Positions 55,841 through 58,140 of a stretch of DNA of 64,000 nt are shown here, one piece after another. A program made the translations under genes and the position numbers. Where the stretch lies: positions 756 to 64,755 of IMG/VR virus record IMGVR_UViG_2838042994_000001. The stretch is one strand, 5' to 3'. The notes under the pieces were generated by a model, which worked only from the letters and a program-made list of their open reading frames with translations, was not told the origin of the DNA and made no database searches. The DNA comes from a virus (Duplodnaviria; Caudoviricetes). Position 1 is the stretch's first letter; the number at the start of each line of letters is the position of its first letter.

Positions 55841-56005
55841 CTCGCCGCAAGTAGGAACTGGTTTGCGTATCTCGGGTGGCAGCGAGAAGTGGTTTACTGA
55901 CAGGCGCTTTAGATATGGTTTGCGCTCTGGCTTTGGCCAGTCAGCAAAAGGTTGGCGGGGCGGCGATCGTCATTTGGGCCACGTGACGACGCTGGCCGCC
56001 CCGCC
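55841..56005 (-). ncRNA. TIGR-like stem-loop guide array, block 3 (units 55954..56005, 55894..55947, 55841..55886)
   Basis: Each unit: stem-CCA-N9-CG-N4-CCA-N9-YG-stem. Confidence 0.85.
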
Positions 56006-56010
56006 ATGGC

Positions 56011-56943
56011 TTAGCCCATGCAGGCTCGCCATTCTGCATAAAGCATCCGCAACAGCCGCTTCTCGGTATAGCGCTTCGCGCGGTTCGCGGCGTGCAGCGT
56101 GTAGCTGTCTTTGCCAGTCTTACTTTCCTTGATGGCCGTGCCGCACTTATGCGGCAAGCGTTCGGCCTCATAACGGGCGCGCTCGGCGAACACGCACTGC
56201 AATTCCGTGTATTCAGGATTGGAGCGGATCTCCTCGCCGAAGACCGGGCGGAACTTGCCCATGGACAAGATCAGGCTGTTGCCGACGTTCCACATGACCG
56301 ATCGGCGCGTCTTGCTGTAGCCCTCGACGATCCAGTCTTCCGCCGTGGCACCTTTGCCTGGCGCGCCCTGCCGATGACCGTTTAGGACGGCAAGCCCCAT
56401 GCGCTTCCAAAGCGCCGATACCGACTTGAAGTCGCCGACCGAATAGAACTCGCCAGTTTCCTTGCCGTAGCCGCTGGCCTCGCCGATGATGCAGGCTAGC
56501 GACAGATCACCGAAGCCCTTGATGCCCTTGGCCCATGCGTAGATCGGTAGCGTTTTGACTGACTTGACGAGATGCTTCTCGTATTCTGACTGCTGCTTGT
56601 CGAGCACTTCGAGTGCCGCGATGTAGGGCGAAAGCATGCCTCGCAGTTGATGCGCTTCATCCTTCATTGCATCAGACCACGCAGATGCGGCCTGTTCTTT
56701 GTCGCCGTCGAAGAGACGGCGCAGACTGGCCTGTCCCTGCAGGATGAGCTTCGTTCTCGCCCGTATCATGTCTTGCCGCAGGCGGTAGAAGTAAAGCACC
56801 TGCTCGATAGCATCGTGGTGACGGACGTTAGTTGTGAATGGTTCCCGGCGCAGCGAGATAGATATGGGAGACGTGTGACTCGTGGCCGCGTCAGGAATTT
56901 GGATTGCCGCGCAAAGTGCCGCTGGCGAAAGGGTCATATTCAT
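56011..56943 (-). CDS. Nop/IS110 C-terminal-domain protein lacking RuvC (TasA-like)
   Basis: Coiled coil then KGIKGFGDLSLACIIGE...DFKSVSALWKRMGL; no DEDD N-terminal domain recognised; flanked by guide units. Confidence 0.8.
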   Translation of the reverse strand: MNMTLSPAALCAAIQIPDAATSHTSPISISLRREPFTTNVRHHDAIEQVLYFYRLRQDMIRARTKLILQGQASLRRLFDGDKEQAASAWSDAMKDEAHQLRGMLSPYIAALEVLDKQQSEYEKHLVKSVKTLPIYAWAKGIKGFGDLSLACIIGEASGYGKETGEFYSVGDFKSVSALWKRMGLAVLNGHRQGAPGKGATAEDWIVEGYSKTRRSVMWNVGNSLILSMGKFRPVFGEEIRSNPEYTELQCVFAERARYEAERLPHKCGTAIKESKTGKDSYTLHAANRAKRYTEKRLLRMLYAEWRACMG

Positions 56944-56974
56944 TGTTGTCTCCTCTGGGTTGCGGTGTGGTGGC

Positions 56975-57290
56975 TGCCTGGCATCCGTCCTATGGGTTTC
57001 ATTCAGTGGCTGGACAGGCAGTATTTGGTAAGAGTGGCGGAGCGAACCCGCCAAACCGCCTGTTTCGTGGCAGCCCCATTTGCGACCGACCCATCAACTG
57101 GGAAACTAGGTAATCGGTCCAAGCGCTCAGGCTCATTCGTATGCGGCGGTATCGCTTGGCCGCCGCAGTTAGTGTTGCTTGTCGGCGCGCTCCATTTCTG
57201 GATATCCGCCGCTAAATTGGCACCGACAAGCAAAAAGGTAGCAGACCGGCGACGCGACATTGGTTACCGTGCCCGCAAAGGCCGATCTGC
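56975..57290 (-). ncRNA. TIGR-like stem-loop guide array, block 2 (units 57241..57290, 57175..57233, 56975..57020, plus non-canonical hairpins)
   Basis: Same architecture; loop repeats CGGTAACCA, CGGATATCCA, TGAAACCCA. Confidence 0.82.
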
Positions 57291-57345
57291 AAAGGATTGG
57301 GCGGCGCGCGAGTGACAGTCTCGGGTGACACGCCGCCCACCGAGG

Positions 57346-57945
57346 TTACACCTCGGAATTGAAGGCGTCGTCCTTCATGCGCTCGATCTCTTTCAGATTA
57401 AGCGACTGATGAATTGGCATATTGTCGCGAGAACAGGCGATGATCTTCTCAAGCCAGCGGGCAGTCCGAACCATCGTCGAGCCCTGCGCGCGATAATGCG
57501 CCTCGGCGGCGCGCAGCTGGTCCGGAGTGGCCTGTCCGAGCAGGAACTCGCCGCCGTTGCCGTCTTTGATTTTGAAGAGGTAGAGGCCGGTGAGCGTAAC
57601 GGCGAAGCGCTTGAACGCTGCGTTGCTGGCCTTAACAGATGCCGCGCTCTGCGGAGTGAATACGACCGGCGCATCGTTTGCGACTTCAGCCGTGGGCACA
57701 TGAACCGTGCCGATATCATCGCCGCGCTTCACTTTGGCGTTGTCTTGGTGATGAAAGCCAGCAACAATAGTGGTCGCGGCGATGCGGAAGGCGTCTTCAT
57801 GAAGAGCTGGCCGCTTGCGGATCTCCAGGATCAACGCCTCAATAGCGGCCTCTGAATTCCGGCCAGCATCATCATAGATGCGTTGTCCGGCAGAGCGGAT
57901 GCTTTCGCTTCTGGCTCCAGTCACTCGTCTTGCTGTCGCGTTCAT
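57346..57945 (-). CDS. Hypothetical protein embedded in guide array (candidate Tas partner)
   Basis: GAGGAGAC RBS; lies between array blocks 1 and 2. Confidence 0.75.
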   Translation of the reverse strand: MNATARRVTGARSESIRSAGQRIYDDAGRNSEAAIEALILEIRKRPALHEDAFRIAATTIVAGFHHQDNAKVKRGDDIGTVHVPTAEVANDAPVVFTPQSAASVKASNAAFKRFAVTLTGLYLFKIKDGNGGEFLLGQATPDQLRAAEAHYRAQGSTMVRTARWLEKIIACSRDNMPIHQSLNLKEIERMKDDAFNSEV

Positions 57946-57970
57946 GTCGTCTCCTCGTGGTGGTGTGGTA

Positions 57971-58140
57971 AGCCTGCCGCGCTTCATAGGCGGATTTCGG
58001 GTGAAGGGTGGCGGCAGGCTATTGGTGTTGAGAACGGCGGCGCAGCAGCGATGGTTTGCAAAATCTCGATGGCTGCCGCTCTCAATGGGTTGTGGGTCGC
58101 GATTGATGTTTGGTTTTCGCGGCACATGTGGCTCCCCACA
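57971..58140 (-). ncRNA. TIGR-like stem-loop guide array, block 1 (units 58091..58140, 58028..58085, 57971..58020)
   Basis: Same architecture; loop repeats CGAAAACCA, TGCAAACCA, CGAAATCCG. Confidence 0.85.

Follow-up and report, generated by a model that had tools for sequence, protein, structure and literature searches.

The 64,000-nucleotide (nt) stretch of DNA analysed here, called the window below (positions 756 to 64,755 of IMG/VR record IMGVR_UViG_2838042994_000001, Caudoviricetes), comes from a complete prophage in a Rhizobium-family bacterium, and its minus strand carries ten hairpin units at 55.8-58.2 kb, clustered around a gene, tasA, for a nuclease-less Nop-domain protein. This locus is very probably a stem-loop TIGR-TasA system of a temperate phage, that is, an RNA-guided DNA binder that does not cut. 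The anatomy of the locus, the fold of its protein, the covariation of its stems and their conservation across loci are all observed. Systems of this kind have already been published (2025-2026); what the present locus adds is its setting in a complete prophage and, in a sibling phage, a single candidate for a natural target.

All ten units have the form CCA-N9-YG-N4/5-CCA-N9-YG within a variable GC-rich stem, with one exception in a first box C (CCT, u4) and one in a second box C (CCG, u3). The first three, on the minus strand like all others, are u1 (58088..58143, spacers A and B CATGTGCCG / AACATCAAT), which has an outer stem of 6 bp with an internal loop, u2 (58029..58084, TCGAGATTT / TCGCTGCTG) and u3 (57968..58023, CCCTTCACC / CCTATGAAG, fold z -5.1). 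These are followed by u4 (57238..57293, TTGCGGGCA / ATGTCGCGT), u5 (57176..57232, ATTTAGCGG / GAAATGGAG), which has a 5-nt loop between its spacers instead of the 4-nt loop of the other units, and u6 (56970..57025, GCCACTGAA / TAGGACGGA), which lies directly upstream of the tasA ribosome-binding site. Unit u7 (56842..56897, core 56885-56854, CGAGTCACA / TATCTATCT) is intragenic and covers tasA codons 16-34. The last three are u8 (55952..56007, GCGTCGTCA / AATGACGAT, fold z -5.3), which begins 3 nt past the tasA stop codon, u9 (55893..55948, AAGCCAGAG / TATCTAAAG), the sole guide with a candidate natural target, and u10 (55836..55891, CCCGAGATA / GTTCCTACT). The first-pass annotation, made from the letters of the window alone, had reported nine minus-strand units with their spacers, including the CCG and CCT variants, and every one of them is seen in the sequence at the positions given there; its count fell one short, because u7 inside tasA had been missed. 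A scanner that also demands a flanking stem recovered u7 along with the other nine. A count of the strict motif CCA-N9-YG-N3-7-CCA-N9-YG over the whole window gave 12 minus-strand copies, of which 10 fall within 55.8-58.2 kb, and four copies on the plus strand. Between u5 and u6, an 8-bp GC stem with a 10-nt loop starting with CCA (TGCGGCGG CCAAGCGATA CCGCCGCA; 57142-57167, minus strand) looks like a collapsed unit minus its spacers; on the minus strand it is not followed by a T-run.

The stems vary in sequence and keep their pairing, as the same annotation had proposed. Among the ten window units, 83% of stem cells are paired (54% in shuffles and 28-52% in slid-partner controls), the covariation score is 0.68 vs 0.16, and 10 of the 13 stem pairs show changes on both sides. 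When 126 units taken from 22 loci were aligned (A2), stem pairing was 86% and the covariation score 0.74 vs 0.15. The non-window units of A2 were chosen by requiring six inner pairs, and the next four stem pairs, which were not demanded in this selection, still pair in 56-98% of units. Positions C13, C14, G26, C31, C32 and G44 are invariant in the ten-unit alignment and likewise in A2. When units were folded in isolation, the closing stem was the minimum-free-energy structure in nine of the ten. The Rfam scan returned no matching family and the tRNA scan no tRNA.

Homologous loci carry units of the same kind, which had been made a test of the first-pass proposal. A regular-expression scan of 20 genome loci with relatives of the gene, together with one phage locus, detected CCA-N9-YG units at nearly every locus, 3-16 in each; they lie on the tas strand and group around the gene. 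A covariance model built from the ten window units only, searched in 192 kb of related loci, gave 147 matches at E <= 0.01; these are spread over 24 homologous loci, and each lies on the tas strand. A larger model, for which units of related loci were combined with those of the window, recovered the ten units of the window and no others there, and at E <= 0.1 it had no match outside the TIGR locus in the 6.05-Mb genome. In A2, CAT was found in spacer A of 21 units (10.5 expected from shuffles, uncorrected p 0.001), and ATG was not enriched in spacer B (17 vs 13.7 expected, p 0.2), so that the earlier idea of gene starts as targets, which relied on ATG in spacer B, did not hold.

The protein encoded by tasA (56011..56943, minus strand; GGAG ribosome-binding site) has 310 amino acids (aa). 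Its AlphaFold (AF2) model, with a predicted local distance difference test score (pLDDT) of 90, consists of a disordered N-terminus (residues 1-39), a coiled coil in the form of a long helical hairpin (~40-130) and a Nop-type alpha/beta C-terminal domain (134-309). Searches of Pfam, of PDB by phmmer and of PDB with the single sequence returned nothing, and the PHROGs match was a family annotated as transposase (E 9e-12). A profile of 48 family members searched against PDB matched the TIGR-TasR chain 9mty (E 4.7e-9), with the C-terminal helix HAANRAKRY..EK included. The ten best Foldseek matches of the model in PDB are all TasR or TasH, and VIA-align ranked TasR (Z 16.8, root-mean-square deviation 2.5, 186 residues aligned) and TasH (Z 15.8) above ISCro4 and IS621 (Z ~13), Nop56/58 (Z 8.0) and Prp31 (Z 7.9). 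Only residues 40-310 of the model are paired in these alignments, and they are paired with the part of the target that follows the nuclease domain (TasR 112-298, TasH 65-282); the alignment to IS621 and ISCro4 is limited to their residues 123-314. No Pfam nuclease matched the 310-aa protein, PF01548 and PF02371 gave no match at E <= 1, and neither the DEDD/RuvC domain nor the C-terminal catalytic serine domain of the IS110 family was found in it. A coiled coil and Nop fold without RuvC or HNH nuclease place the protein in the TasA class and not with TasR or TasH. The gene coordinates, the missing nuclease domain and the Nop fold had all been called correctly in the first-pass annotation. The family counts 1,972 cluster representatives at E <= 1e-3. 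Close relatives of TasA are encoded by genomes of Rhizobium, Endobacterium, Shinella, Mesorhizobium and Brucella and by Rhizobium phage RHph_X2_25, an isolated temperate phage with a named laboratory host, a Sinorhizobium; the TasA of this phage is 86% identical to that of the window.

Stem-loop TIGR arrays were described by Faure et al. 2025 (PMC12045711), and a catalogue of 2,559 stem-loop arrays was given by Xu et al. 2026 (bioRxiv 10.64898/2026.09.09.750476), who found units upstream and downstream of tas genes and also inside them, in disordered regions, together with a conserved CUU at the base of the stem as processing boundary. The function, which had been called uncharacterised in the first pass, is already known from the same study: TasA is an RNA-guided DNA binder whose ribonucleoprotein binds target DNA and represses transcription. 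The structure of a stem-loop TasA with nine-bp heteroduplexes on both strands was reported by Guan et al. 2026 (bioRxiv 10.64898/2026.08.11.744272). Compared by description with the stem-loop TIGR-TasA systems PlTasA (Peromyscus leucopus gut contig), BlTasA (Bifidobacterium longum) and MbTasA (Minisyncoccota), the window locus shares the nuclease-less coiled coil and Nop protein, the phage-origin element, the variable palindromic stems that enclose two 9-nt spacers with their box C (CCA) and box D (YG), and an array broken up into sub-arrays that lie upstream and downstream of the tas gene and within it, with the intragenic unit in a disordered, hypervariable N-terminal peptide as in BlTasA. 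It differs from them in lying in an alphaproteobacterial prophage between two CI-like repressors, in having a clade-specific 199-aa gene within the array, in an inter-spacer tetraloop closed by a G-C pair between box D and box C (9 nt from YG to CCA), and in carrying the CUU stem-base motif at only ~4 of 10 units. Apart from the CUU motif, which is seen at ~4 of 10 stem bases, all sequence-level features that define stem-loop TIGR-TasA are present. These include two spacers of 8-12 nt between box C (CCA) and box D (UG/CG) in each of several adjacent units and, instead of edge repeats, flanks that vary and yet stay palindromic. The supplementary files of Faure et al. 2025, as far as our search covered them, contain no Rhizobium or RHph names.

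The other relatives by fold are set apart by clear differences. TIGR-TasR and TasH (TaTasR PDB 9mty; SpTasH PDB 9vzx, 9w04), the best structural matches, have a RuvC or HNH nuclease, cut DNA and work with units of a fixed 36 nt in which the edge and loop repeats are conserved. The IS110 recombinases (IS621 PDB 8wt6, ISCro4 PDB 9t56) resemble TasA in their coiled coil and RNA-binding C-terminal fold, and their bridge RNA, with two bipartite guide loops, resembles the dual-spacer units. However, they carry DEDD/RuvC catalytic and Tnp serine domains, use one bridge RNA per element and carry out recombination, none of which applies here. The small nucleolar ribonucleoproteins (snoRNPs) of the box C/D type, with Nop5 or Nop56/58, target RNA for methylation together with fibrillarin, L7Ae and a kink-turn (K-turn), and Prp31 is a protein of the U4 small nuclear ribonucleoprotein; snoRNP-type partners or K-turn motifs were not found at the TIGR locus.

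Comparison of units at matching positions across loci revealed that stems and flanks are often near-identical and spacers unrelated. The stem of u2 recurs in two related loci (L023 and L006) with other spacers, and the stem of u4 is identical at 22 of 24 positions to units of L001 and L022, with spacer agreement at 8 of 18 positions only. Among inter-locus unit pairs with 20-24 of 24 identical flank positions, the mean spacer identity is 3.4-6.5 of 18, while the background is 4.6 of 18. Spacer identity at background despite the same flanks indicates that spacers change by replacement and not by gradual drift. The intragenic unit u7, which is homologous to L001:5061-5116, has the same pattern at the protein level: its stems encode the conserved peptides IPDAA and RQEPF, and its spacers encode a hypervariable peptide of low pLDDT. 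In four close relatives, MNMxLSPAALCAAIQIPDAA and RQEPFTT are conserved and the 11 spacer-encoded residues between them are unrelated. The u7-encoded N-terminal region has the lowest AF2 confidence of the TasA model, and the TasA of RHph_X2_25 contains three intragenic units within a longer N-terminal insert. Such replacement bears on the question of spacer acquisition in TIGR systems. According to Xu et al. 2026 (bioRxiv 10.64898/2026.09.09.750476), spacer acquisition and natural TIGR targets are both unknown, as loci are mostly on metagenomic fragments and short spacers lead to false matches.

A target site was taken as spacer A, a gap of 0-2 nt and the reverse complement of spacer B on one strand. 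With this geometry, the predicted target of u9 was found at 18 of 18 positions, without gap, in a GC-matched rhizobial prophage contig whose best matches are Rhizobium phages; the site lies within a 146-aa open reading frame (ORF) of PHROG 2143 (contig L059). The site is matched at 17 of 18 positions in the orthologous gene EVB59_053 of phage RHph_Y3_1, ~100 bp upstream of holin-like and lysozyme genes, and at 16 of 18 in two same-genus prophages. Two isolates, RHph_Y3_1 and RHph_Y3_56_1, carry the candidate protospacer; neither the window prophage nor any part of the host genome contains the u9-targeted gene. RHph_Y3_1 lacks tasA and is a mosaic sibling of the window prophage, with which it shares head, terminase and lysis modules at 74-86% identity (68-86% nucleotide identity over window positions 9753-11868 and 24501-31511). 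The lysis cassette adjoining the target gene is shared at 86% identity, and the homology starts directly after the target gene. This is the pattern expected of a guide against a sibling competitor; we treat it as a lead whose likelihood falls somewhat short of even.

The system sits in a well-defined genomic context. The window is identified as a prophage by its genes for terminase, major capsid, tape-measure protein, helicase and integrase and by a CI/LexA-like repressor gene, which bears out the first-pass description of a temperate phage, and the host assembly is near-complete (99.98%, 58 contigs). The CI/LexA-like repressor gene (58540..59280, plus strand; HTH_3 and Peptidase_S24) is divergent from the TIGR operon, and the same CI-like neighbour is found at L001, L002, L022, L023 and L025. 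A second repressor-like gene (54723..55334, plus strand), 55% identical to an XRE-family protein of RHph_X2_25, converges on the end of the operon. The gene order of repressor, units, ~198-aa gene, units, tasA and units is kept in RHph_X2_25 and four other loci. The gene within the array, ORF199 (57346..57945, minus strand, 199 aa), has homologues of 50-79% identity that occupy the corresponding place in L001-L004 and L022-L025, and 19 homologues in all, only in Rhizobiaceae or phage, and is thus limited to this Rhizobiaceae sub-clade. Its AF2 model has a pLDDT of 78, and Pfam, PHROGs, the protein atlas, Foldseek and a wide VIA search (best Z 4.8) gave nothing above noise. ORF199 was also considered as a ParB-linked partner, and this was rejected as family and fold searches revealed no ParB link or fold. 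ORF95 (55520..55807, minus strand), the last gene of the putative operon, has a good GGAG ribosome-binding site and no homologue in the related loci. The integrase lies 3 kb from the TIGR operon, and a 339-aa DUF7666 / PHROG 4433 protein is encoded between the CI-like gene and the integrase (59705-60724, plus strand).

The intergenic control region (58144..58539, minus strand) between the CI-like gene and u1 contains a TTGACC hexamer at ~58476. Beside the hexamer, at 58430-58480 on the minus strand, the direct repeat ATAAACCG occurs twice, ~22 nt apart, and the two copies may be operator sites. A 10-codon mini-ORF, MLALIEGRRL (58360-58392, minus strand), follows a strong AAGGAGG ribosome-binding site in this leader, which also contains a very basic 27-aa ORF (58194-58277, minus strand), and no Cro-like ORF was found between the CI-like gene and u1. 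Terminator-like sites in 55200-58800 numbered 6 vs 4.1 in shuffles, which is uninformative.

The layout and the ribosome-binding sites suggest that the operon is read as a single transcript. This transcript would run leftward from the 400-bp gap beside the CI-like repressor gene through three units, ORF199, another three units, tasA (whose 5' coding region contains one unit), a last set of three units and ORF95. Every unit would form a hairpin in which the variable stem closes a loop that shows two 9-nt spacers between box C (CCA) and box D (YG). Units would then be cut from the transcript and each be bound by a TasA dimer via the Nop domains. The resulting ribonucleoprotein would read an 18-bp DNA site, with one strand paired to spacer A and the other to spacer B, and the nuclease-less TasA would bind there and block transcription or replication without cutting. 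Spacers would be renewed as whole cassettes inside conserved stems. Published work on TasA leads us to expect expression, processing, DNA binding and repression by the present protein as well. Its role in this prophage is most plausibly interference with competing phages, as we infer. We give about even odds to the idea that the guides are naturally aimed at rival mobile elements, above all at sibling temperate phages without the system. The full proposal, in which the guides act against sibling Rhizobium phages without the system, u9 points to the first natural protospacer, and spacers are wholly replaced in conserved scaffolds even within the tasA frame, is put forward tentatively.

Several observations weigh against this interpretation. 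CTT lies directly 5' of the stem in u4, u5, u9 and u10 only (~4 of 10 units, read from the sequence), and the consensus scan of 55200-58800 detected no sigma-70 promoter-like site. In isolation u1 favours another fold, in which its 5' stem pairs with box C and spacer A, and the u8 spacers A and B are complementary to each other over 7 bp and pair in the isolated fold, so the free u8 guide may be self-paired. Some units may therefore be poor guides, and the complementarity within u8 makes its predicted target a near-direct, codon-periodic repeat. For the target search, the geometry was deduced from the published 8-nt 3' overhang and C-5 rule (PMC12045711) and not from a figure. Eight predicted targets were scanned in IMG/VR with 0-6 matches each, and u9 alone was plausible; the other seven scans returned noise, mostly low-GC unrelated contigs, and the u4 match (L053) is to a contig edge, in the 3' end of a host-like nitroreductase gene. 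None of 201 family genomes contained the u1 target. The u9 match is a single one, for which the chance of a similar random match was estimated at ~0.05-0.2. The exact u9 site did not occur in 60 same-genus genomes, and the other 125 guides of related arrays showed no excess of matches to the RHph_Y3_1 phage family.

The search of resident DNA bears on the alternative that survives best, namely that the guides regulate the phage life cycle or silence host genes (e.g., flagellar genes), with TasA repressing resident DNA. No exact target site was found in the 6.05-Mb host genome or the prophage, and host sites with <=1 mismatch numbered 1 vs 0.7 expected. Near-cognate host sites were in apparent excess (15 vs 6 expected). 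The excess was not accepted as real: it is still there when up to 4 mismatches are allowed, the reverse order shows it too, at the complementary codon phase, and u8 dominates it; these control patterns and the codon-periodic u8 identify it as an artefact of composition and codon phase. The best near-sites in the host are one of u4 in fliI (1 mismatch, 2-bp gap) and one of u3 in motA (2 mismatches), at G000:C4:165303 and C4:167563, in a flagellar cluster ~78 kb from the prophage. As targets these were set aside, since chance suffices for them (0.7 sites with <=1 mismatch expected; co-localisation p ~0.08). Sites with 2 mismatches in ftsK, seen for both u4 and u8, fit chance as well, and when the window and the 25 related loci were searched for cross-targeting, nothing exceeded chance.

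Regulation of resident DNA is thus left with the location of the operon in the immunity region between two repressor genes, with the 2.3 kb distance between the fliI and motA near-sites, and with the mention of host silencing and life-cycle regulation among the possible roles of TIGR systems in Xu et al. 2026 (bioRxiv 10.64898/2026.09.09.750476). Besides the lack of exact sites and the artefactual excess, the spacers of close relatives are wholly different, which is ill-suited to conserved housekeeping targets, and we regard this alternative as unlikely. A second alternative, in which TasA and its guides aid recombination or segregation, either by bending DNA for the integrase or through a partner as in ParB-linked TasA loci, follows ideas that were both raised by Faure et al. 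2025 (PMC12045711), and the conserved ORF199 in the array and the nearby integrase would suit it. However, no recognisable fold, ParB or other, was seen in ORF199, the guides match neither the prophage ends nor any site in the host, and ten hypervariable guides are hard to square with a single attachment site, which makes this role very improbable. A third view takes the hairpins for ordinary palindromes between genes, either terminators or elements of RNA stability, and the protein for a fragment of a decayed IS110-type transposase without guide function. The transposase or IS110-family labels of relatives in PHROG and UniRef could be cited for it. It has a negligible probability, as it is contradicted by the location of 147 of 147 model matches on the tas strand, by an intact, conserved and confidently modelled protein that is nearer to TasR and TasH than to the IS110 recombinases and has no DEDD/RuvC domain, and by the Rfam scan.

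The value of the locus is that of a native test bed, and not of the discovery of a new kind of system. The TIGR-TasA system described here resides in a complete prophage of a near-complete assembly, a relative is carried by the isolated phage RHph_X2_25, and the sibling phages that bear the candidate protospacer are isolates as well. With these resources, expression of the array in relation to the CI switch, binding by the guides and the unrelated spacers in identical hairpin scaffolds are all directly testable. Wholesale replacement of spacers within conserved hairpin scaffolds, if it takes place, would imply a dedicated mechanism of spacer renewal.

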